The translations under genes were made by a program, and so were the position numbers. From a phage, in the sequence record PZ534515.1: 64,000 bases of DNA; one strand, given 5' to 3'. Below are positions 2,336 to 64,000 of this stretch, piece after piece; position 1 is the first letter of the stretch; each line of letters begins with the position of its first letter. The notes under the pieces were generated by a model, which saw only the letters and a program-made list of their open reading frames with translations, made no database searches and had not been told where the DNA came from.

Positions 2336-3376
2336 ATGGAGAAGTATACACTAACAAAACTTCCCGATTCAGTTACACATGTCTTTATTGACTCTGACAG
2401 TATTGCCTATAAAGGTGCTTGTGTAGTTGAGAAAGCAAAATATAAATATGTCAATAAACTCACAGCAGAAGAGTCTGAACCATTTGATAATGCAAAAGAT
2501 GCTGCAAGATGGTTAGCAGACCAGAGAATCCTTGTAGAAGAGCTTGGCCTAACATTTGATGAAGATGAATGGGAAAGACAGACTTGGAAAGAAGCTAAGA
2601 GTGAAAAAGAAGCTATCATGGCTACTCAGCAGGTTCTTCAGGAATGGCTTAAGGTTGTTGGTAAAGAAAGAACTTGGGTAGGTTATTTAACAGAGAAGGG
2701 TGTACATAAACATAAAGATATTAAAGGTCTTGAGCACCAATATCAAGGTAACCGTAAAGATGCTGTCACACCAACACACTTAGTCGCTTGTCGTGAATAT
2801 CTTTTATCCAGACCAGAGTTCAAACTCTTAAAGGGTGGATTCGAAGCTGATTCAATCGTAATTGCTAAAGCTGAGAAGATGGGTAAAAAGGCTGCTCTTA
2901 TGAGTATTGACAAAGACCTTCGACAAGCTGAAGGGACTTATTGTATTGATATGACTTATGAAAAGTCACCACTAATTTTTATTGCTGACAATAATGTTGG
3001 TGATATCTGGGATTGCCCTATCAAATCAAAACCAAAAGCTGCAAAAACAGTTGGTGTAGGTTTTAAATTCTTGTGTTATCAGGCTGTTGCTGGAGATAAT
3101 GCAGACAACTACTTCGGCCTTAAAGGTGCTGGCAAAGTAGCTGTGATGAATGCTTTGGATGGTAAAGATACCTACAAAGAGTGTCTTGATGCTATCTATG
3201 AACTCTATGCTAAAAAAGAGTCTTACACCTATGTATCATGGGATGGACAGACTGTTACCAAAACGCCATTAGAGTTAATGGAACAGCATTTCTTCCTAGC
3301 TTATCAAGAGAGAAATCCAAAAGATAATTTCTCTTTTAAGAAATATAATTGGGAGCCATGTATGAATGAAGATTAA
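2336..3376 (+). CDS. FEN-family 5'-3' exonuclease / RNase H
   Basis: N-terminal VFIDSDSIAYKGA resembles the PIN/FEN metal-binding motif. GDNADNYFGLKGAGKVAVMNAL matches the H3TH motif of Pol I-type 5' nucleases. Confidence 0.65.
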   Translation: MEKYTLTKLPDSVTHVFIDSDSIAYKGACVVEKAKYKYVNKLTAEESEPFDNAKDAARWLADQRILVEELGLTFDEDEWERQTWKEAKSEKEAIMATQQVLQEWLKVVGKERTWVGYLTEKGVHKHKDIKGLEHQYQGNRKDAVTPTHLVACREYLLSRPEFKLLKGGFEADSIVIAKAEKMGKKAALMSIDKDLRQAEGTYCIDMTYEKSPLIFIADNNVGDIWDCPIKSKPKAAKTVGVGFKFLCYQAVAGDNADNYFGLKGAGKVAVMNALDGKDTYKECLDAIYELYAKKESYTYVSWDGQTVTKTPLELMEQHFFLAYQERNPKDNFSFKKYNWEPCMNED

Positions 3377-3863
3377 AGGATTTGGCAATTGTCCCACCTA
3401 TGGACATTGGGTATCTTTATGTGGGGAAGTTGACCCCACTAAACATTTTGGTTTTGTCTATTTAGTACACTGTAAGAAAACCGGACAATATTATATCGGA
3501 AAGAAACAGCTTAATAGCGTGACCAAAAGAAAAGTTGCTGGCAAGACTCGGAAGAAGGTAGTCACTAAGGAGAGTGATTGGATGACTTATGAGACTTCTT
3601 CTGAGTATATTAAAAAAGATATCGAGAGCTTTGGAAAGGAATTTTTTGACTTTTACATTATCCAAACCTACTACACGAAAGGTGGCCTAGTTTATGGTGA
3701 AGCAAACCTCCAACATAAATTCGATGTAATGACAAAAAGGATTGACTCTAAGCTCAGACTCTTCTACAATGCCAATATTGCAGCAATTAAGTTTATTACT
3801 AAAGAAACTTATGAAGATGCTGAAAAAAGAATCCATAAGGTAATGAAAGCAAACTGTGCTTGA
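3366..3863 (+). CDS. GIY-YIG domain nuclease
   Basis: FVYLVHCKKTGQYYIGKK fits the GIY-(10-11 aa)-YIG signature. Confidence 0.5.
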   Translation: MKIKGFGNCPTYGHWVSLCGEVDPTKHFGFVYLVHCKKTGQYYIGKKQLNSVTKRKVAGKTRKKVVTKESDWMTYETSSEYIKKDIESFGKEFFDFYIIQTYYTKGGLVYGEANLQHKFDVMTKRIDSKLRLFYNANIAAIKFITKETYEDAEKRIHKVMKANCA

Positions 3864-3884: not shown

Positions 3885-4133
3885 ATGTTTAACAAAAGTA
3901 AAGCTGTGAGTCATGTAGCAAAAGTTGACAGCAAGATTGAAGAACTTGAGCGCATTCTTGCAAATGCCAGAGAGTCAATAATTAAAGAAGTTGAAGCTGT
4001 TGAATCTCAAATGCAGCACCTAATGCTTAAACGTCAAGAGCTACGTGAGCATCTAGAATATATTGAAACGCGAGAGCTAAAGGTTAACAAATATTTTAAG
4101 GAGTCCGAATGTTTAACTCAAGAGAATCAGTAA
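3885..4133 (+). CDS. hypothetical protein (coiled-coil)
   Basis: ATG preceded by GAGAGAG. The track start at 3870 is a TTG. Confidence 0.45.
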   Translation: MFNKSKAVSHVAKVDSKIEELERILANARESIIKEVEAVESQMQHLMLKRQELREHLEYIETRELKVNKYFKESECLTQENQ

Positions 4134-4864
4134 AAAACTGGAACCTTCGTTGTGGGAACACTCAAAAGCAACCTTACAGTGACGAGTATTGGGAATCTTT
4201 AAAGTCTCAATCTCTATGTATGCTTGAAGAAGCAAAAGAGCTTGTGAAAGCAATTGAAGAGAAAGACCCCATTGAGACACTCGATGCTCAGGCAGATTTG
4301 CAATATGTTCTTGACGGTTTGATTTACCTGTCACAACATGACCATAACGGTGCTATGAAAGCTGTTTGCCATAATAATGACCTGAAGTACACAGATGACT
4401 ATGAAGAAGCTTTAAAACGTCTTGCAGATATTGAGAAGCGTACTGGTCAAGAGTGTATTATTCGAATGTCAGTGGTTGATGGTAAAGAGTGGTATGCGAT
4501 TGTCCGTGCAGCCGATGGGAAGATTATGAAGCAATCAAATCTCCCTAAAGTACAGCTTGGTGAATACATTGTAGAGCTTGAAAGCCAAGAACTTTTTGTG
4601 GTAGTATCTGAGACATGCGTTATCTGCAAAGGTATTGTAGGTAGCTTAAAGGATTTGGGTGTAGATGGTTTTGTAGAAGTTAATCCAATTACCTCTAAAG
4701 CAGATAAAGATTTCTGTAAAGAGAATGGACTATGGATTGCAGATATTGTCTACTATGATGGTGAGCAGTTCCATGTAACCTCATACCCGAAACTGAATTA
4801 TGATGCTAATAACCTGAAGTGCTGGTTAAAAGGGGTTGGTTATAATGGATTCACAGAACATTAA
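4109..4864 (+). CDS. hypothetical protein with MazG-like all-alpha NTP pyrophosphohydrolase motif
   Basis: LEEAKELVKAIEEKDPIETLDAQADLQYVLDGLIYL resembles the MazG/HisE E-x-x-E ... D-x-L pattern. AAGGAG sits 5 nt upstream of the ATG. Confidence 0.4.
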   Translation: MFNSRESVKNWNLRCGNTQKQPYSDEYWESLKSQSLCMLEEAKELVKAIEEKDPIETLDAQADLQYVLDGLIYLSQHDHNGAMKAVCHNNDLKYTDDYEEALKRLADIEKRTGQECIIRMSVVDGKEWYAIVRAADGKIMKQSNLPKVQLGEYIVELESQELFVVVSETCVICKGIVGSLKDLGVDGFVEVNPITSKADKDFCKENGLWIADIVYYDGEQFHVTSYPKLNYDANNLKCWLKGVGYNGFTEH

Positions 4865-9652: not shown

Positions 9653-11797
9653 ATGAACAAAGTACAAATTATTAAAAAGAATGGCTCACTTGAAGAACCG
9701 GATATCAAAAAAGTTTTAGCAGCAGTCACAAAGTCGGCTAACAGGGTTGGGTATAAAGAACTTCCACCAGATGTTACCCAAGCTCTTGAGTCAGCATTTA
9801 TGAGGATTCTGGTAAAGTCCACTAAGCAGAATAATTTGCTCATCTCAGTAAACGATATTCACAGTATTGTTGAGGGTGCTTTGGCAGAAGTAAATCACGA
9901 GATTTATGAGTCTTACTCAACATATAGAAATTACCGTAAAGAGGTTGCTCAAAATTGGGATGAGCTTTACCAGAAGACTAAAGACACGCTCTTCTTAGGT
10001 GACCGTGAAAATGCTAACTTTGACAGCAGTTTAATTTCTACAAAAGGTTCAATTATTCGTGGTTACCTGACTAAAGAAATCTTTAAACAGTACCATCTAA
10101 CACCAGAGGAACTTGAAGCCATTGAAAAAGGGTTTATCTATATCCATGATTTAAGAGACCTGATTTTTGGTGGTATCAACTGTTGCCTGTTCGACATTGG
10201 TAAAGTACTGAAAGGTGGCTTTGAAATGTCTGGCATCGAATACTGTGAACCAAAGTCTGTGCTGTCAGCCTTACAGGTTATCGGTGATGTAGTTCTTTCA
10301 GCAACTGCACAGCAATTTGGTGGTTTTACTTTAGCAGAGATTGATAAGGTGCTTGTACCATATGCTAAGAAGTCTCTACGCTATCATGCTGAGAAAGCAG
10401 CATCTTACGGTATTCCTAAAGAACATTACCATAACTATGTCATGGAGCAGCTACAGATTGAATTAACTCAAGGCTTCCAGTCACTAGAGATGAAGCTAAA
10501 TACTGTACCTTGTAGCCGTGGTGATTTCGCATTCACAACTTTAACATTTGGTTTACTTGACTCAGATATGTCTAATGAAGACAACCGACTACAATACATG
10601 ATTGCAAACACTATTCTTGATGTTCGCATGAATGGACAAGGTAAGAGCAAGAAGCCTGTTGTATTCCCTAAACTGGTTTATATTCATGACCAGAAGAGAC
10701 ACGATGAGAATATCTGTCAAGGTCAACTGTACAGTAAAGCTATTGAGTGTTGCTCTAAAGCAATGTATCCAGATTTCTTAAGCGTCTCTGGTCATGGTGC
10801 TGTAGCAGAAGCTTTTGAGCGTTCTGGCAAGGTAATTTCACCGATGGGTTGCAGAGCCTTCTTATCTCCATATCTTAATGAGGATGGGGAAGAGTTCTAT
10901 GTTGGTCGTGCTAACATTGGTGCTGTATCTTTGAACTTACCAATGATTTACCAGTATTCTAAAGAGAATGGTTTAGATTTCTGGAAAGAGCTTGATAAGT
11001 ACCTAGAGATGATTCGCAGCTTCCACAAGAAACGCTACGAAATGATTGCTAACATGCCAGCAAGTTCTAACCCTCTGGCATTCACACAAGGTGGTCTGTA
11101 CAAAGGGACTAAGAAACCTACTGACAAGGTTGGTTGGGATATCGTGAAGTCCTTCACAGCTTCTTTTGGGGTTACTGCTCTGGATGAGTTGTCTGTTCTT
11201 GCTGAGGGTAAACGACTTCATGAAGTTGGAAGCTATAGCTTTGCATACGATGTTCTGGCATACATTAACATGAAAACTGAAGAGTTTAAGAATGAAGATG
11301 GTTTCTTGTATGCGGTATATGGCACTCCAGCAGAATCACTTTGTGGAACTCAGCTAAAACAGTTCAGAGATATGTTTGGCGTTATCAAAGGTGTTTCTGA
11401 CAAGGAATACTTTACAAACAGTTTCCATATGAATGTTGCAGCAGACATCTCACCATTTGAGAAGCAGGACTTAGAAGAGCCATTCTTCCATATCTGTAGA
11501 GGTGGTAGAATCCAGTATGTAAGGGTGGCTAACCCAGAAAACTTACCAGCACTTAAAAGTTGTATTACAAGAGGTATGTTGAAAGGTTTTTATCAAGGAC
11601 TTAACTTTGACTTAGCAATCTGTGAGCATTGTGGTAACAGACCAAAGGCTGATGTTGAAGAATGTGAGGTTTGCCATTCACATGATATCTCTGTGATTAA
11701 CAGGGTGTGTGGGTATCTTGGATGGACTAAGATTAAAGGCGAATCCCGAATGAACGATGCAAAAATCGCTGAGATTCGTGATAGAATTTCTATGTAA
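9653..11797 (+). CDS. nrdD: anaerobic ribonucleoside-triphosphate reductase (class III)
   Basis: 714 aa. C-terminal glycyl-radical motif NRVCGYLGW and a preceding C-x-x-C pair. Confidence 0.9.
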   Translation: MNKVQIIKKNGSLEEPDIKKVLAAVTKSANRVGYKELPPDVTQALESAFMRILVKSTKQNNLLISVNDIHSIVEGALAEVNHEIYESYSTYRNYRKEVAQNWDELYQKTKDTLFLGDRENANFDSSLISTKGSIIRGYLTKEIFKQYHLTPEELEAIEKGFIYIHDLRDLIFGGINCCLFDIGKVLKGGFEMSGIEYCEPKSVLSALQVIGDVVLSATAQQFGGFTLAEIDKVLVPYAKKSLRYHAEKAASYGIPKEHYHNYVMEQLQIELTQGFQSLEMKLNTVPCSRGDFAFTTLTFGLLDSDMSNEDNRLQYMIANTILDVRMNGQGKSKKPVVFPKLVYIHDQKRHDENICQGQLYSKAIECCSKAMYPDFLSVSGHGAVAEAFERSGKVISPMGCRAFLSPYLNEDGEEFYVGRANIGAVSLNLPMIYQYSKENGLDFWKELDKYLEMIRSFHKKRYEMIANMPASSNPLAFTQGGLYKGTKKPTDKVGWDIVKSFTASFGVTALDELSVLAEGKRLHEVGSYSFAYDVLAYINMKTEEFKNEDGFLYAVYGTPAESLCGTQLKQFRDMFGVIKGVSDKEYFTNSFHMNVAADISPFEKQDLEEPFFHICRGGRIQYVRVANPENLPALKSCITRGMLKGFYQGLNFDLAICEHCGNRPKADVEECEVCHSHDISVINRVCGYLGWTKIKGESRMNDAKIAEIRDRISM

Positions 11798-11951: not shown

Positions 11952-12152
11952 ATGCTTAAAATATCAAAAGCACTGACACCCATATTCCACATACTAGTCT
12001 TCTTCTTTGGGGTTAGTGTCATGGTATGGGGTTTTTCAGACCCACAATGGAGTTTCTCATATCACGGTCAGATGGATTTATGGTCATGCTTCAAACCGTT
12101 TTTGGGGTTAGCTATAGCATTCAGTGCATTACCAACTAAGGTGAAATTATGA
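11952..12152 (+). CDS. small membrane protein
   Basis: AAGAGG upstream; two hydrophobic segments. Confidence 0.4.
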   Translation: MLKISKALTPIFHILVFFFGVSVMVWGFSDPQWSFSYHGQMDLWSCFKPFLGLAIAFSALPTKVKL

Positions 12153-12544
12153 TTAAGTTGAATCAAAAACAGTTAGAGTGGATTAAAGATTACGCCTCAG
12201 AGTGTGGCTCTTGCGAAAAGAATCACGTAAGATACTCAACATTCCACACGGTCTTCACATTGTACATAGGCGACAACGTTCTAAGTGATTCCGTAGAAGA
12301 TGGTGTAGCATTGCCTAATGAGTTACTTGATAAACTAGCTGTAGTCACTGGAACTTGGTCTGAAGAAGATGGTCATGAATTATCTGACAATGTTGTCTTC
12401 TACACCATTGAAAACATTATGAACCCAGAGTATATTGCACTCATGACTTGTGCACAAGACTGCGTGCTCTTACAAGACTTCATTAAAGAGCACTGTGAAG
12501 AGTTTATTACTAAACAGGTTCCTTGTCAGGTAGTGTTTGAATGA
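12149..12544 (+). CDS. hypothetical protein
   Basis: ATG overlaps the preceding stop; Cys-rich N-terminus. Confidence 0.45.
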   Translation: MIKLNQKQLEWIKDYASECGSCEKNHVRYSTFHTVFTLYIGDNVLSDSVEDGVALPNELLDKLAVVTGTWSEEDGHELSDNVVFYTIENIMNPEYIALMTCAQDCVLLQDFIKEHCEEFITKQVPCQVVFE

Positions 12545-12593
12545 GTAAAACAATTCGAAGAAAAGGTTTGAATAATATTGGTGAGGTAACTAG

Positions 12594-13079
12594 ATGAATT
12601 ACATGGAGATTCGACCATTTGACACAGCTAATGGTGAAGGGGTTCGTGTAAGCCTCTTCGTAGCTGGTTGTAAGCATCACTGTGAAGGCTGCTTTAACAG
12701 GGAGTCTTGGAAGTTTAATGCTGGTAAAGAGTTTACTTATGCAAACCTCTACGGCATCATTAAGTTAATGGATGATAAGGCCATCAGTGGGTTGTCAATA
12801 CTTGGTGGAGAGCCTCTTGATGATAGGAACATTCAAGAGGTCACCAACATATGTAAACGTATTAAAACTGTTTATCCAGAAAAGTCTATATGGCTTTGGA
12901 CAGGTTTTCAGTTACACGAAAAAATTCATCTAGATGTGATGAAATATGTTGACGTGGTGATTGATGGTAAGTATGATTCTTCTAAACCAACAGTTAAACC
13001 ATATCGTGGTTCTGATAACCAAAACCTCTGGAGAAAAGAGTATGGGTGGCAAGGCGATTGTCAATGGCGAGCAGAGTAA
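12594..13079 (+). CDS. nrdG: anaerobic RNR activating protein (radical SAM)
   Basis: CKHHCEGC cluster near the N-terminus; about 160 aa; paired with nrdD. Confidence 0.8.
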   Translation: MNYMEIRPFDTANGEGVRVSLFVAGCKHHCEGCFNRESWKFNAGKEFTYANLYGIIKLMDDKAISGLSILGGEPLDDRNIQEVTNICKRIKTVYPEKSIWLWTGFQLHEKIHLDVMKYVDVVIDGKYDSSKPTVKPYRGSDNQNLWRKEYGWQGDCQWRAE

Positions 13080-13116
13080 ATCTCGTCGTAAAATTGGCTA
13101 CGGGAAAGGTGAGATA

Positions 13117-13407
13117 ATGATTATCTCTTTTAATAGTGCTTTATTAGGCACTTATAAGGTCAAGACCGAACTCCTTGATGAGTGGAAAAAGTATACAAAC
13201 TCACTGTTTGGTAATGTTGGAATGGAAGCCTTAGCAGAGATTGAGAAGGTGGGAACATTCGAAGTTATTGGTAAAGGCCACTTTACAATGTTCTACAAAA
13301 CAAATTTAACGTTGGTGACAGTATTGTTGGTGTCACTGAAGAAGAACTTAAAACATTTTGTGAAAAGATTGAGAGAGATACGAAATGGGAATCTGGAACA
13401 GTTTTAA
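13117..13407 (+). CDS. hypothetical protein
   Basis: In-frame ATG after the nrdG stop with AAAGGTGAG upstream. The track ORF start at 12961 overlaps nrdG. Confidence 0.35.
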   Translation: MIISFNSALLGTYKVKTELLDEWKKYTNSLFGNVGMEALAEIEKVGTFEVIGKGHFTMFYKTNLTLVTVLLVSLKKNLKHFVKRLREIRNGNLEQF

Positions 13408-13642
13408 ATCAAAAGTAAAAGCAGCACTGGCATCACTAGGTATGCTCACTGGTGTTGACGTTACTCATCTCATGCAGAACTTCAAGATGGATGAGAAACT
13501 AGCTAATGAGATTATGAAAAGTATCTATGTAGGTCGTGGTAAAGGTGGTAAAAAACAAGCACATCGACCAACTGGTGCAGCAGCTATTAAACGTGCAGCT
13601 AAGAAAGCTCGTAACCGTAAACGTAACAAGAAGGCTAAATAA
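13385..13642 (+). CDS. hypothetical protein with basic C-terminus
   Basis: ATG start; C-terminal KKARNRKRNKKAK. Confidence 0.4.
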   Translation: MGIWNSFKSKVKAALASLGMLTGVDVTHLMQNFKMDEKLANEIMKSIYVGRGKGGKKQAHRPTGAAAIKRAAKKARNRKRNKKAK

Positions 13643-13644
13643 TC

Positions 13645-13965
13645 ATGAGCAAAGTTTATAACACTCGTAAATTACAGATTTTCGTACTGTGCCAATTTAT
13701 GGCTAAAGAGTATAACTACTACTACTGCGGTACAGGGTTCATTAGCGATGATGACGGCTCATATCTACCATTCAAAGAGGCTGTAAAACTCTTCAATGAA
13801 GAGGAAAGCTCTAAGAAAGATATTGAAAAGGTTAAGCTAACCTACAGCAAGAAAGATAAGAAGATTATCTGCCTAGATAACTTTGTAAAAGTTACTGGAG
13901 AAGCAAAAGAGTTTATGGATGAGAGTGAAATCTCGTTCACAAGTATCTTGAAAGTAGCTCAGTAA
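13645..13965 (+). CDS. hypothetical protein
   Basis: ATG start; followed by a hairpin and T-run. Confidence 0.45.
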   Translation: MSKVYNTRKLQIFVLCQFMAKEYNYYYCGTGFISDDDGSYLPFKEAVKLFNEEESSKKDIEKVKLTYSKKDKKIICLDNFVKVTGEAKEFMDESEISFTSILKVAQ

Positions 13966-14016
13966 ACAGATACTATAAGGGGACTGTAAAGGTTCCCTTT
14001 TTATTTTGGAGATAAA

Positions 14017-14532
14017 ATGTATCTGTCAAATCTAAAACGTTCGGCTGCAATGTCAGTTCTAAGACTAAGCTTTGAAGAACGTCAAGAGTTCATTGACTCC
14101 CACCAATACGACCCTTCTAACTCAAATCACATGGTTCTCTGGAATCGTGATAGTACTCGTGAAAGAGCACTATTCCGCTATTATCCACATTACACCATAG
14201 ACAACCTGTATGAATGTTTTGTTGTTAAGAACACCATTGCAGTGCTCAATAAGCTTTGTAGATACACAGGCAACCAGTCCTTCACATTAGGTCACCACAA
14301 ACCTGTTACAAAAGGTGGCGAGCATCATTGTGCAAACTGGTTTATCCAAACTAAATCTGATAATCAGAAGCAGGGAGATAGCCTTCTAAGCATCCCTAAG
14401 ATGACCTATGAAGAGCAAGAGAAATATATCAAAAATAATATGCCAGATGTGCTTGACAACAACTATACAGATTTGGCAATATCTCTCCTGTTGAAGTTTG
14501 AGACAGTTTATAGGGCAACTTACAATGGCTAA
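14017..14532 (+). CDS. HNH endonuclease (homing-endonuclease-like)
   Basis: LGHHKPVTKGGEHHCANWFIQTKSDNQKQ fits the HNH motif (HH ... N ... N). Confidence 0.5.
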   Translation: MYLSNLKRSAAMSVLRLSFEERQEFIDSHQYDPSNSNHMVLWNRDSTRERALFRYYPHYTIDNLYECFVVKNTIAVLNKLCRYTGNQSFTLGHHKPVTKGGEHHCANWFIQTKSDNQKQGDSLLSIPKMTYEEQEKYIKNNMPDVLDNNYTDLAISLLLKFETVYRATYNG

Positions 14533-14803
14533 AGAGAAGTGGGAGATTTTACCACTAGTCAGTGAGGGTGGCAATGGTTGTGAAATGTACATGATACGAG
14601 GTCATGTTCCAGAACCAATTGCACTTGAGATGGTAAACAATTTTACAGATGGCTCTTACAAAGACTTAGGAGAACCAACTGTCAAGCAACAATGGGTTAA
14701 ACCTGTACCAGACAGCACAGGCAACTGTAGTGTACTTTATCACGTTGTAGACCCTGCAAAATGCAAATCTGCAATGGCAGTAACAAACGTAACTTTTGAT
14801 TAA
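14525..14803 (+). CDS. hypothetical protein
   Basis: In-frame ATG; the track start is an alternative codon. Confidence 0.35.
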   Translation: MAKEKWEILPLVSEGGNGCEMYMIRGHVPEPIALEMVNNFTDGSYKDLGEPTVKQQWVKPVPDSTGNCSVLYHVVDPAKCKSAMAVTNVTFD

Positions 14804-14816
14804 GAGAGAGAGAGCT

Positions 14817-15698
14817 ATGAAAACTATTATTGAAGCCGTTGTCACCGCACAAGAGAAATTCTTCCACACAGAAAAATTTAATATCATCCAATTCCCATCT
14901 GGAGAAATTGGTGGAAACTTCTCTGAAGACTTTGTTAAGTTTACTGAGCGTAATGCTGGTAAGATTGACAATGTTATATTGACTGTACAGGGATATGATA
15001 AAGATACACTGTTTGCATTAGCTTTGGCTAAGGATGCCGTTGACAGTCTTGTTCCATACAAATCAGCGATGAAAACCGTTGTTTTCGGGTTCTTACCGAA
15101 TGCTCGATATGACCGCCATATATTCAAAGGTGATTCAGCAGCACTGAAAGCCTTTGCCAACCTCGTTAATGCAATGGGTTTTGATGCAGTATGTGCTCTT
15201 GACCCTCACAGTAATGTTGCAGAAAACTTATTTAAGTGTTTTCAGAGCATGAAGCAAAAAGATGTAGCAGCACACTTTGCAAGTGACCCACGCATTGATT
15301 TCTTGGTAGCCCCAGATGCAGGTGCAGCTAAGAAGACTGAAGAGACTGCTAAAGAGGTGGATAAACCATATATCACAATGTCTAAAGTACGCAACCTTAA
15401 GACTGGTGAAATTACTGGTATGCGAATCCTTGATGCTGTTGATTTGACCGATAAAACTGTCATGATTCTTGATGATATTTGTGATGGAGGCCGAACCTTC
15501 ATAGAAGCAGCTAAACATCTTCGTGAAGCAGGTGCAAAACGTGTGGAACTCTATGTAACTCATGGTATTTTCTCTAAAGGTGTTGAAAACTTACTTGACA
15601 ATGGTATTGACCATATCTACACTACAAACTCTTTAGGGGAAGCTAAAGACCGTGGATTAACACATTATGCCCAAGTTACTGTAGTAACCATTGATTGA
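14817..15698 (+). CDS. ribose-phosphate pyrophosphokinase family protein (PRPP synthetase-like; candidate ADP-ribose pyrophosphokinase)
   Basis: PRPP-binding-type motif VMILDDICDGGRTF. ATG preceded by GAGAGAGAG. About 293 aa. Confidence 0.75.
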   Translation: MKTIIEAVVTAQEKFFHTEKFNIIQFPSGEIGGNFSEDFVKFTERNAGKIDNVILTVQGYDKDTLFALALAKDAVDSLVPYKSAMKTVVFGFLPNARYDRHIFKGDSAALKAFANLVNAMGFDAVCALDPHSNVAENLFKCFQSMKQKDVAAHFASDPRIDFLVAPDAGAAKKTEETAKEVDKPYITMSKVRNLKTGEITGMRILDAVDLTDKTVMILDDICDGGRTFIEAAKHLREAGAKRVELYVTHGIFSKGVENLLDNGIDHIYTTNSLGEAKDRGLTHYAQVTVVTID

Positions 15699-15705
15699 AA
15701 CTTTA

Positions 15706-15728
15706 TAGGGGCTTCAAAGCCCCATTTT
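15706..15728 (+). terminator. stem-loop / weak terminator
   Basis: ggggcttcaaagcccc hairpin followed by ATTTTG. Confidence 0.45.
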
Positions 15729-15743
15729 GAGAGAGATTAAAAG

Positions 15744-17525
15744 ATGACTAAATCACTTTATGCAGTACCAGCAGGTTTAAATGCAGATGCTTACAAATCT
15801 GGTCATGTTTACCAGTACCCTAGTGCAACAGATTACTTGATGTTTAACCTGACACCACGTAGTGATAAATGGTTTAACAGCCCTTTAGCAATTGATGGTG
15901 TAGTAGCTTTTGGTATTCAACGTTTTGTTAAAGATTACTTGATAGACCACTGGAATACCACCTTCTTTGAACGTGACAAAAAAGAAGCAATTGATGAAAT
16001 CTTAGAAGTCATGAACGGTGTTCTGGGTAAAGATGCTATTGGTCGAGAACATTGGGAAGCACTTCACGACTTAGGTTATCTACCAGTTGAAGTATACGCT
16101 GTAGAAGAAGGCACAGTTGTCCCTATGCGTGTTCCAATGATTGTATTCCAGAACACTGTTTCAGGTTTCCATTGGGTAGCAGGATATCTGGAAGATGCTT
16201 TCTCTGCTGAGATTTGGAAGGCTTGTACCATTGCGACTATTGCATTGCACTACAAACGTATCTGTAAGAAGTGGTCTGACCTTACTTGTGACAATGACTT
16301 GCATTTACCTTATCAGTGCCATGACTTTGCTATGCGTGGTATGTCCGGCTTTACCGATGACGCATTTAACGCTGTAGGTCACTTAACCAGCTTTAAAGGG
16401 ACTGATAGCTTCCCTGCTGTATATACAGCTAAACGCATCTATGGACAGTCCTACCCAATCTCTGAGATTGGTGGTTCTGTACCAGCCACTGAACACTCTG
16501 TCATGTGTGCAAACATTGCTTGGGAAGGTGGTAATGAATTGATTGAAGAGGAAAGACGCTTTAGAGGTGAGTTGCAAACCTTCCGTCGTTTCTTAACAGA
16601 AACTTACCCAACTGGTATTGTAAGTATTGTTTCAGATACTTATAATTTCTGGAGAACTGTATCAGTGATACTACCAGAACTCCGTAAAGAGATTATGGAA
16701 CGTGATGGCAAACTGGTAATTCGTCCTGACTCTGGCGACCCTGTACATATTGTCACAGGTTATAAAGCAATCCACTTAGAGTGTGCTAAAAAGGCTTATT
16801 ACGAACACCTAAGCAAGCTGGAAGCCAGCGACACAATGTTGAATGCTGTTCTGAACATGAAGCTTGAAAACATCAACTACGGCATTGCTGGGTGGCTACT
16901 GTCAGAAGGTTACGAAATGGTTGTTGACAGAGAAGACTTTGAAGTTGCCGATACAGTGATGTTGAAAAATGCTTATATGGTTGGTTCTGCAAACGTTGTA
17001 ACACGTCCTGTAGCAGAGATTGATGGAGCTATCAAGACACTGTATAACATCTTTGGGGGAACTATCAACTCTAAAGGTTTTAAAGTACTGGATGAGCACA
17101 TCGGACTTATTTATGGTGACTCTATCACGTTGGAACGTGCAAACGAAATCTTGAAGCGTTTGTATGAAATGGGTTTTGCAAGCTCTAACGTGGTGTTTGG
17201 TGTAGGTTCTTACACTTACCAGTACATGACTCGTGACACTTTTGCATTTGCTGTCAAAGCAACTCTTGCAAGCATTGGTGGTAAAGAGATTATGCTTGCA
17301 AAAGACCCTAAAACAGATAGTGGTGTTAAGAAGTCTGCTTTTGGTGGTGTAGCACCTATGTGGGATGGTGATAAGCTGAAAGCTGTAGATGGCTATGGAT
17401 TCCAGAGCTTTGCAGATGTGCTTGAACATCCAGCTTGTGCTTTACGTTTAGTCTTTAGTGACTCTGAGCAGTTCGGTTACACATCTCTTGGTGATATTCG
17501 AAATAATATTGACAAGCAACTTTAA
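15744..17525 (+). CDS. nicotinamide phosphoribosyltransferase family protein (NAMPT-like; candidate Namat)
   Basis: 593 aa. Family assignment is by recalled family resemblance and adjacency to the Prs-like gene; an HMM search is needed. Confidence 0.65.
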   Translation: MTKSLYAVPAGLNADAYKSGHVYQYPSATDYLMFNLTPRSDKWFNSPLAIDGVVAFGIQRFVKDYLIDHWNTTFFERDKKEAIDEILEVMNGVLGKDAIGREHWEALHDLGYLPVEVYAVEEGTVVPMRVPMIVFQNTVSGFHWVAGYLEDAFSAEIWKACTIATIALHYKRICKKWSDLTCDNDLHLPYQCHDFAMRGMSGFTDDAFNAVGHLTSFKGTDSFPAVYTAKRIYGQSYPISEIGGSVPATEHSVMCANIAWEGGNELIEEERRFRGELQTFRRFLTETYPTGIVSIVSDTYNFWRTVSVILPELRKEIMERDGKLVIRPDSGDPVHIVTGYKAIHLECAKKAYYEHLSKLEASDTMLNAVLNMKLENINYGIAGWLLSEGYEMVVDREDFEVADTVMLKNAYMVGSANVVTRPVAEIDGAIKTLYNIFGGTINSKGFKVLDEHIGLIYGDSITLERANEILKRLYEMGFASSNVVFGVGSYTYQYMTRDTFAFAVKATLASIGGKEIMLAKDPKTDSGVKKSAFGGVAPMWDGDKLKAVDGYGFQSFADVLEHPACALRLVFSDSEQFGYTSLGDIRNNIDKQL

Positions 17526-17539
17526 AAGTATATGATAAG

Positions 17540-17565
17540 AGGCTCCTATGGGAGCCTTTTTAATT
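17540..17565 (+). terminator. rho-independent terminator
   Basis: ggctcc-tatg-ggagcc hairpin followed by TTTTTAATTT. Confidence 0.6.
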
Positions 17566-17578
17566 TCTGGAGAATGCT

Positions 17579-17923
17579 ATGGACAACCTTTCCATATGGT
17601 TTAACAAGAAACCTGTACAACCGAAATACTTACAAGTTGCCTATACAGACATCCTTGAAGTTCTCGGTAAAGAAAAGTTTGAAAAGTTTTGTGAAGGCAT
17701 CTACAATCATCACTGCCAATTTGCTACAAAAGAAGGTATGTTTGTCATAGAACAGTTCTTTGGCAGAGACCCAGATGACTACGAAGAGATTAGCTTTGTA
17801 ATGAAATACATGATAGAGTATATTGAAAATCGTGGATTCGAAGTTAATCCTGAATTTTATGAGCACGAGGGTGTACCTTTAGCAAAAGGTTTTGATGGAA
17901 TACTTGTTAGCTGGACTTGGTGA
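17579..17923 (+). CDS. hypothetical protein
   Basis: ATG with GGAG upstream. Confidence 0.45.
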   Translation: MDNLSIWFNKKPVQPKYLQVAYTDILEVLGKEKFEKFCEGIYNHHCQFATKEGMFVIEQFFGRDPDDYEEISFVMKYMIEYIENRGFEVNPEFYEHEGVPLAKGFDGILVSWTW

Positions 17924-17928
17924 AAATT

Positions 17929-18264
17929 ATGAAAATCAAAGAAATGAACATCAATATTGTCTTAGAAGAACGCTGGGAGAACATCAAGAAGCCTGAAAAG
18001 GGTCATAAGTTCCTCAACAAAATCTTAGTAGCAGCTAAAGAAGAACTGACTGGCAAGGTTGCAGCAGCAATTACAATAAAGGTCTGTGTAAAAGGTCTTC
18101 CAGACAATCACCAATTTGCACTTGACGAGTTTAAAGAAAGCTTCTACAATCCAAACAAACAGATGCTTGAAAGTAACTTTGCAGTATCTACAAGTATCGT
18201 CCATGATAGAAGCTTCATCCTTTACAAGAATATGAGAGGTGAGTCATGCAAGCATATTGGATAG
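17929..18264 (+). CDS. hypothetical protein
   Basis: In-frame ATG; the track start at 17917 is a TTG. Confidence 0.45.
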   Translation: MKIKEMNINIVLEERWENIKKPEKGHKFLNKILVAAKEELTGKVAAAITIKVCVKGLPDNHQFALDEFKESFYNPNKQMLESNFAVSTSIVHDRSFILYKNMRGESCKHIG

Positions 18265-18422
18265 AAATTTTACTGTCACTTGGTAGTGTAGCAGTGTTCG
18301 TTTACCTTCTTTGCAAGTACTATGCAGAGCACAAAAAATGTGACTTCTGTAATGGGGAAGGTTATACAAGAACAGGCTGTTGCCCTATATGTGGTGGTTC
18401 TGGTAAAATGTTTAATAAGTAA
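18246..18422 (+). CDS. small membrane protein with C-x-x-C ... C-x-x-C zinc-ribbon motif (58 aa)
   Basis: Hydrophobic N-terminal helix followed by CDFCNGEG ... CCPICGGSG. Below the track size cut-off. Confidence 0.3.
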   Translation: MQAYWIEILLSLGSVAVFVYLLCKYYAEHKKCDFCNGEGYTRTGCCPICGGSGKMFNK

Positions 18423-60674: not shown

Positions 60675-61073
60675 ATGAAAACAGAATCTAGAGTAATTAA
60701 TGGTAAGAAAGTAAATATCATTCTGCTTGGGGCAAGAGACGGTATTAAGATGTCTATGAAGTTGGGTAAAATTGTTGTTCCAACATTTGCACAGATGCTG
60801 TCAAGTCTTACGGATAAAGATAAGAAAGAAGCTCCAATGGTTCCATTTAAAGAACTTGTTGAAGCTTGTTTTGACAGAATTGAAGAAATTAACCTAGAAG
60901 AAATGGCTACCCTGCTATTTCAAGGGGCAACTGTTGATGACTTCCCACTCAATATTGATACGTACTTCCAAGCAAACTACGGTGAATTTATTGATTACTT
61001 AGCATTTGCGCTGGAGGCAAACTTCGGAAGTTTTTTCGAAGCAAGCATTTTCAAAAGCCTAACTTCTCAGTAA
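60675..61073 (+). CDS. tail assembly chaperone-like protein
   Basis: Position immediately upstream of the tape measure gene. Confidence 0.35.
   Translation: MKTESRVINGKKVNIILLGARDGIKMSMKLGKIVVPTFAQMLSSLTDKDKKEAPMVPFKELVEACFDRIEEINLEEMATLLFQGATVDDFPLNIDTYFQANYGEFIDYLAFALEANFGSFFEASIFKSLTSQ

Positions 61074-61314: not shown

Positions 61315-61315
<1 letters not shown>
61076..61315 (+). CDS. hypothetical protein (second small ORF before tape measure)
   Basis: Position. No overlap with the preceding ORF, so no frameshift evidence. Confidence 0.35.

Positions 61316-64000
<2,685 letters not shown>

Follow-up and report, generated by a model that had tools for sequence, protein, structure and literature searches.

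NARP1 is an NAD+ reconstitution pathway with which phages counter the defence systems Thoeris, DSR1, DSR2, SIR2-HerA and SEFIR; among about 20,000 phage genomes, 859 were found to carry it (Osterman et al., bioRxiv 10.1101/2024.02.11.579819). Its two enzymes are an ADP-ribose pyrophosphokinase (Adps), homologous to Prs, and a nicotinamide ADP-ribose transferase (Namat), homologous to NAMPT. Here, we analyzed a 64,000-nucleotide stretch of phage DNA (PZ534515.1), referred to below as the window, in which positions 14,817 to 17,525 hold two adjacent genes that a first-pass annotation, made from the letters alone, had put forward as a candidate counter-defence module of the NARP1 type. We found that the window belongs to a Felixounavirus-type phage and that the gene pair almost certainly represents a NARP1 operon coding for Adps and Namat. 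The grounds for this assignment are orthology to a characterized operon, conserved catalytic and selectivity residues, the lack of a nicotinamide mononucleotide (NMN) adenylyltransferase (NMNAT) among the scanned reading frames, and the anatomy of the operon; from these we infer that this copy acts in the same way as its studied relatives.

The pathway was discovered through deletion and metabolomics of genes 79-80 of Escherichia phage JohannRWettstein (BASEL phage Bas63, MZ501086). On cells carrying SIR2-HerA, the Bas63 deletion mutant formed about 20-fold fewer plaques and depleted NAD+ more deeply (Osterman et al.). Two new metabolites, ADP-ribose pyrophosphate (ADPR-PP) and ADPR-cyclic phosphate, were seen exclusively in defence-carrying cells infected with wild-type Bas63, and the rescue of NAD+ by this phage was independent of the host proteins PncC and NadR, as a delta-pncC delta-nadR host revealed. 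The evidence for counter-defence further includes a deletion in phage FADO, assayed with DSR2, and a knock-in of the NARP1 genes of Bacillus phage SpbetaL1, assayed with type I Thoeris. The Bas63 proteins purified poorly; the enzymology was done with the SpbetaL1 homologues. SpbetaL1 Adps converts ADP-ribose and ATP into ADPR-PP and gives no product from ribose-5-phosphate and ATP (Fig. 2D legend of that report), and SpbetaL1 Namat joins nicotinamide and ADPR-PP directly into NAD+. The latter enzyme can also make NMN from phosphoribosyl pyrophosphate (PRPP); when both substrates are offered, ADPR-PP alone is used (Osterman et al.).

Judged by sequence, the adps-namat pair of the window is a near-identical copy of this founding operon and, in this sense, is already known. 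A megablast search of positions 14700..17600 against phage genomes returned 256 records, nearly all of them of the Felixounavirus type (Felix O1-like) and with Escherichia, Salmonella, Shigella or Citrobacter as hosts. The top match is 96.7% identical, and Bas63 shows 94.1% DNA identity over the same interval; altogether, over 200 Felix O1-like phages with sequenced genomes carry the operon. At the protein level, window Adps matches bas63_0079 without gaps (95% identity, 279/293) and window Namat matches bas63_0080 likewise (97%, 578/593). None of the resulting 14 and 15 substitutions touches a key functional residue. The resemblance extends to the surroundings. The two phages are alike at the genus level, and both genomes share the gene order, the 45-bp spacer between the two genes, and flanking orthologues of bas63_0077, bas63_0078 and bas63_0081 to bas63_0084, the local order in Bas63 being nrdG, small open reading frames (ORFs), bas63_0077, bas63_0078, bas63_0079, the 45-bp gap, bas63_0080, further small ORFs and rIIA.

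The two genes form a genuine pair and no chance arrangement. Measured against their Bas63 orthologues, dN/dS amounts to 0.10 for adps and 0.04 for namat, and hence strong purifying selection acts on the pair. The first-pass annotation had described a Prs-family gene with a PRPP-binding-type motif, followed 45 bp downstream by a 593-aa NAMPT-family gene, and both halves of this description proved correct. The first protein carries the PRPP-loop motif VMILDDICDGGRTF at residues 214-227 and matches the Pfam families PF00156 (Pribosyltran, E 1e-12) and PF14572 (Pribosyl_synth, E 4e-9). The second, present at its full length in the ORF listing, matches PF04095 (NAPRTase, E 3e-34); its match to PF18127 (NAMPT_N, E 5e-5) reaches 24 bits, slightly under the curated cut-off of 25 bits. 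The spacer, 15699..15743, measures exactly 45 bp. An in-frame TTG at 14796 could serve as an alternative start for adps; the annotation of its relatives uses the ATG. Of note, 97% of the members of the published Adps clade have a Namat homologue directly adjacent (Osterman et al.), and in the window namat likewise lies directly next to adps on the same strand.

Current resources give both proteins the names of classical salvage enzymes. This holds for Pfam, PHROG, NCBIfam and GenBank, and in the Bas63 record bas63_0079 is labelled 'ribose-phosphate pyrophosphokinase' and bas63_0080 'nicotinamide phosphoribosyltransferase'. The window pair has its superfamilies and catalytic chemistry in common with E. 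coli Prs (b1207) and with the human and Xanthomonas Nampt enzymes. Taken at face value, these names would make the first protein a genuine PRPP synthetase and its neighbour an NMN-producing nicotinamide phosphoribosyltransferase, with host NadR- or PncC-dependent routes leading on to NAD+. The ability of SpbetaL1 Namat to produce NMN from PRPP in vitro speaks for such a reading. However, we consider it very improbable, and for the 95-97% identical operon of Bas63 it is already largely refuted: the result in the delta-pncC delta-nadR host and the ADPR-PP metabolite contradict it, as do the failure of SpbetaL1 Adps to yield a product in the Prs assay and the exclusive use of ADPR-PP by SpbetaL1 Namat when given a choice.

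The window proteins themselves also argue against classical salvage. Window Adps passes the broad NCBIfam subfamily model TIGR01251 (133 bits, cut-off 113) and falls under the cut-off of every Prs equivalog, the best score being 109.5 bits vs 296. Moreover, Pfam did not detect the N-terminal domain of Prs (PF13793, Pribosyltran_N) in it; the score of E. coli Prs for this domain is 179.5 bits. On these two results, the identification of the protein as a housekeeping PRPP synthetase was rejected. SpbetaL1 Adps is similarly divergent, with Pribosyltran_N under the cut-off and TIGR01251 missed, and E. coli Prs reaches 423-533 bits on the Prs models. The lysine that SpbetaL1 Adps requires for activity (K162, counterpart of K192 in the enzyme of Vibrio phage Gary) aligns with Lys190 of window Adps, which falls in PHROG 619 (E 2e-97). 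In the published phylogeny, the Adps clade is separate from cellular Prs and includes Bas63 Adps as one of its query seeds (Osterman et al.). Going by identity and models rather than by a tree, window Adps belongs to this phage clade, apart from cellular Prs. It would accordingly be expected to turn ADP-ribose into ADPR-PP, an activity transferred from the SpbetaL1 enzyme and from Bas63-infected SIR2-HerA cells.

For Namat, the structural work offers a sharper signature. Namat enzymes possess a selectivity-clamp helix (SCH) with the motif GSX-phi-X-phi-X-phi-TRD, in which aromatics at positions 3 and 7 stack on the adenine, and a clamp loop (SCL) whose third residue is either Arg, or Lys/Tyr in combination with a stacking fourth residue; Bas63 Namat is of the latter type (PMC12774641). 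In window Namat, the SCH reads GSYTYQYMTRD from G488 to D498, with Y490 and Y494 as the two aromatics, and the clamp loop contains S40-D41-K42-W43. Over both the longer loop segment TPRSDKWFNSP and the helix motif, the window and Bas63 proteins are the same. At the SCH position, Xanthomonas Nampt (7YQO) has GGALLQKVDRD and 9KE8 has GAQTYQRNTRD, both without the two aromatics. The catalytic histidine is kept (ATEH251S, aligned with Gary H243), and so is Arg327 (IR327PDSGDP), the equivalent of SpbetaL1 R306 and human R311. The NAMPT-like core, the SCH and the SCL by which Namat is recognized are all present, and the adenine-clamp motif is a further point against classical salvage. By analogy with SpbetaL1 Namat, we infer that window Namat prefers ADPR-PP and synthesizes NAD+ directly.

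The first-pass annotation had also suggested a profile or structure comparison of both proteins with Adps and Namat on one side and their housekeeping counterparts on the other, and this comparison separates them only in part. Adps fails the Prs equivalogs, and the closest solved structures to Namat are those of SpbetaL1 Namat (9W5X/9W5W, E 1e-127), ahead of human NAMPT (E 1e-41). On the other hand, Namat also passes the 'nicotinate phosphoribosyltransferase' equivalog NF006629 (467 vs 405 bits), a result that would suit classical salvage. Because NCBIfam holds no model specific for Adps or Namat and Namat exceeds this cut-off, the library cannot split Namat from Nampt.

The window was also examined for NMNAT genes and for known NARP1 accessories. 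Nine neighbouring ORFs (12149..14803 and 17579..18422) were scanned individually against Pfam, at E values up to 1, and against PHROGs; the other window ORFs were greedily selected as non-overlapping, ATG-start frames with a minimum length of 100 aa, as far as position 61073, and searched against Pfam as concatenated pseudo-proteins. A 742-aa ORF at 61315..63543, orthologous to the tape-measure protein of Bas63, lay outside the Pfam scan. The nine neighbours and the selected window ORFs, a set without the tape-measure ORF, showed neither an NMNAT (CTP_transf_like) nor a Nudix domain; Pfam likewise gave none for ten Bas63 proteins that had no other annotation and that lie in the 23 kb missing from the window, and none is annotated across the whole Bas63 genome. 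The earlier statement that no NMNAT is visible nearby holds for the nine neighbouring ORFs, and an NMNAT elsewhere in the genome, which had been named as an observation that would speak for ordinary salvage, did not turn up in the scanned window ORFs or in the Bas63 annotation. A completion of classical salvage by the phage itself was rejected on the same searches. Together with the near-identity to Bas63 and the Namat signature, these results favour the NARP1-type Adps and Namat of the initial proposal over classical salvage.

The same searches bear on NARP2, in which Nampt (NadV) and a phage NMNAT/Nudix protein (NatV) make NAD+ from PRPP and nicotinamide. This pathway is known in other phages, such as Vibrio phage KVP40, where, as proposed for the window, a NAMPT-family enzyme restores NAD+ for the phage; the second gene of our pair is of that family, and the NatV partner would have to be encoded elsewhere. 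Yet NARP2 of KVP40 depends on an NMNAT and has PRPP as its preferred substrate, whereas the window pairs its NAMPT-family protein with an Adps-type partner and an adenine clamp. A NatV-type protein, with NMNAT and Nudix parts, is missing from the scanned window ORFs, the ten Bas63 proteins and the Bas63 annotation, and we regard NARP2 as an extremely remote prospect here. As for accessories of NARP1, the RyR domain (PF02026) of RyDEP, a cADPR glycosidase within some mycobacteriophage NARP1 loci (bioRxiv 10.64898/2026.05.28.727677), was found neither in the neighbours nor elsewhere among the scanned window ORFs. Pfam and PHROG likewise revealed no Macro domain within two genes on either side of adps and namat, the range that defines NARP1-AP, the variant with an associated phosphatase. 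With no RyR domain, no Macro domain within two genes and no NMNAT or Nudix domain, the locus is therefore a plain two-gene NARP1.

If the NARP1 assignment is right, the pathway would begin when a host NADase effector of the SIR2, TIR or SEFIR type, belonging to a defence system such as SIR2-HerA/Nezha, Thoeris, DSR1/2 or SEFIR, splits NAD+ into ADP-ribose and nicotinamide. With ATP as the donor, Adps would then pyrophosphorylate ADP-ribose at the 1'' position of its free ribose, yielding ADPR-PP. In Namat, the narrowed entrance of the active site is predicted to clamp the adenine by means of Y490, Y494 and W43, and the enzyme would exchange the pyrophosphate of ADPR-PP for nicotinamide. NAD+ would thus be regained directly, without passing through NMN and without the need for an NMN adenylyltransferase. 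Such a pathway would be active only when needed, because its substrates arise solely after NAD+ cleavage.

Several points weigh against this interpretation. The function of the window pair is carried over from Bas63 by orthology. The enzymology and the structures come from the SpbetaL1 homologues, with which the window proteins share just 30% (Adps) and 46% (Namat) identity. In pairwise comparison, and not in a tree, window Adps is scarcely nearer to SpbetaL1 Adps than to E. coli Prs (30% and 25% identity). These two values are indecisive alone, and therefore the decisive link is the near-identity to Bas63 Adps, not the similarity to the assayed enzyme. Furthermore, the NMN-forming reaction that SpbetaL1 Namat retains in vitro makes a secondary classical activity possible. 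Finally, the Namat of this lineage carries an insertion of 77 aa, to which we can assign a putative role only.

This insertion covers residues 351-427 (16794..17024), just past the RPDSGDP strand, and is accompanied by a second one of about 15 aa (about residues 258-275, about 16515..16568), both relative to the Namat proteins of SpbetaL1 and FADO. Bas63 Namat has them as well. A search of the 77-aa segment against phage genomes found it in 254 records, all of the Felixounavirus or Mooglevirus type, and between these two groups it diverges fast, with 44-52% identity. Searched alone against solved structures, it gave no meaningful match (best E 1.1), and the structural study (PMC12774641) does not use the word 'insertion' in its main text. 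As a lesser possibility, this Ounavirinae-specific segment may add a regulatory or interaction function to Namat. In other respects, SpbetaL1 resembles the window: it has a two-gene adps-namat arrangement, and K162/K190 of Adps, R306/R327 of Namat, the catalytic histidine and the SCH aromatics (F392/Y490 and Y396/Y494) correspond. Besides lacking both insertions, SpbetaL1 Namat differs in its clamp loop, with R40 in place of K42-W43, and the two SpbetaL1 genes abut, unlike those of the window, which are set apart by the 45-bp spacer with its hairpin.

The features of the locus are collected in Table 1. Upstream, a terminator-like hairpin, at a place where the record of phage AYO145A also annotates a terminator, likely marks the 5' boundary of a unit comprising two small ORFs, adps and namat. 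Bas63, AYO145A and Felix O1 all have conserved copies of these two ORFs, which are not known NARP1 components and are probably co-transcribed with NARP1. Purine tracts of the GAGAGAGA type precede both adps and namat. The 51-nt intergenic stretch with the GC-rich hairpin has a minimum free energy of -12.6 kcal/mol (z -2.6) by RNA folding, and the AYO145A record annotates a rho-independent terminator at its counterpart. A full terminator was rejected for this site, since the consensus scan made no call and the T tail is short (4 T). It is possible that the hairpin acts as a weak terminator or attenuator, or as an element of transcript processing or stability, and it could make the expression of Adps and Namat unequal. 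After namat, a second terminator-like hairpin is predicted from its sequence to close the transcription unit. A strong, near-consensus promoter-like site of the sigma-70 type stands back to back with this hairpin and presumably serves the downstream genes.

Table 1. Features of the NARP1 locus and the distal Macro-domain gene in the window.
Feature	Position	Strand	Details
Upstream terminator-like hairpin	13977..13999	+	Consensus scan, with T tail; fold -14.1 kcal/mol, z -2.6
171-aa ORF	14017..14532	+	PHROG 3500, function not assigned in PHROG; weak HNH-endonuclease-like match (E 9e-5); orthologue of bas63_0077
92-aa ORF	14525..14803	+	ATG at 14525; PHROG 4726, function not assigned in PHROG; orthologue of bas63_0078
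adps, Prs-family, 293 aa	14817..15698	+	ORF listing; ATG start at 14817
Intergenic GC-rich hairpin	15708..15723	+	GGGGCUUCAAAGCCCC then AUUUUG; between adps and namat
namat, NAMPT-family, 593 aa	15744..17525	+	ORF listing
Sigma-70-like promoter-like site	17509..17536		TTGACA-16-TATGAT, 11/12 matches; overlaps last namat codons
Terminator-like hairpin	17537..17560	+	Consensus scan: 10-bp stem, 5 GC pairs, then TTTTTAATTT; fold -14.8 kcal/mol
Macro-domain protein, 261 aa	25357..26142	+	Pfam Macro E 8e-8; orthologue of bas63_0095, annotated 'putative phosphatase'

Beyond the plain operon, the window contains a gene for a Macro-domain protein, located downstream of NARP1 at a distance of 7.8 kb, or about 17 genes. 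In Vibrio phage Gary, NARP1-AP is a three-gene Adps-Adpp-Namat operon, in which Adpp, a phosphatase acting on ADPR-1''-phosphate, enables NARP1 to withstand aRES, a defence with a RES domain; H24 and N27 are the two residues of Gary Adpp whose mutation abolished the anti-aRES activity. The window has the Adps/Namat core in common with Gary, whereas its Macro gene is distal. In addition to acting as a NARP1 operon, the locus might be functionally extended by this protein, which would dephosphorylate the ADPR-1''-phosphate released by RES-type NADases such as aRES and feed ADP-ribose to Adps and Namat. The Macro protein falls in PHROG 335 (E 3e-113), the family that also takes the validated Adpp of Gary and, from Table S1 of the paper on that enzyme, a further two Macro proteins associated with NARP1 (E 1e-49 to 6e-61). 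It is 27% identical to Gary Adpp over 154 residues (BLASTP, E 3e-14), with identities of 25-36% across Gary Adpp and the NARP1-associated Macro proteins, and its His25 and Asn28, which correspond to H24 and N27, are invariant in an alignment of six sequences. The survey of NARP1-AP, which reported an associated phosphatase for 15% of NARP1 operons, covered two genes on either side of NARP1, and the phage panel used with aRES was without any Felix O1-like phage (Felixounavirus), which leaves room for a dispersed arrangement.

Nevertheless, we view this extension as rather unlikely. The gene lies far past the hairpin that is predicted to close the NARP1 unit, and the hairpin scan stopped short of the Macro gene. 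The histidine and the asparagine are generic ADP-ribose-binding residues of Macro domains, the top NCBIfam match is a DarG-type glycohydrolase macrodomain, far under its cut-off, and the protein extends about 100 aa further at its C-terminus, a region not found in Adpp. Moreover, the PHROG-335-type Macro family occurs in 2850 phage records, with about 1000 Escherichia phages among them, as compared to 189 Escherichia records with any Namat or Nampt; being far commoner than these enzymes, the family is not NARP1-specific. We therefore treat the Macro protein as a candidate NARP1 accessory only. If it did play this part, Felixounaviruses would be resistant to aRES, even though surveys with a two-gene range score them as plain NARP1. 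In this sense, the distal gene suggests that the figure of 15% may be too low, missing phages whose phosphatase gene lies at another genomic site.

NARP1 is an important, recently described strategy of immune evasion, by which phages restore NAD+ from the fragments that NAD+-depleting defences produce. The window copy adds nothing new to it, because it is 95-97% identical to the operon of the discovery. Its practical value concerns annotation. Current NCBIfam, Pfam and PHROG models are unable to tell Adps and Namat from Prs and Nampt, and the labels 'ribose-phosphate pyrophosphokinase' and 'nicotinamide/nicotinate phosphoribosyltransferase' should become Adps and Namat.

A few features of the window lie outside the NARP1 locus. 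The anaerobic ribonucleotide reductase gene nrdD is a single, uninterrupted ORF of 714 aa (9653..11797), unlike its Bas63 counterpart, which is split into two joined pieces around the homing-endonuclease gene bas63_0068. Upstream of nrdA, there is an ORF resembling a SegE-type GIY-YIG homing endonuclease (3366..3863, Pfam E 4e-26), and another (4109..4864) with a marginal match to MazG/PRA-PH-like pyrophosphohydrolases (21.7 bits vs a cut-off of 21.3). Finally, 26 tRNA genes occupy the + strand between 44616 and 49613, with a few small ORFs between them, an arrangement typical of Felix O1-like phages.

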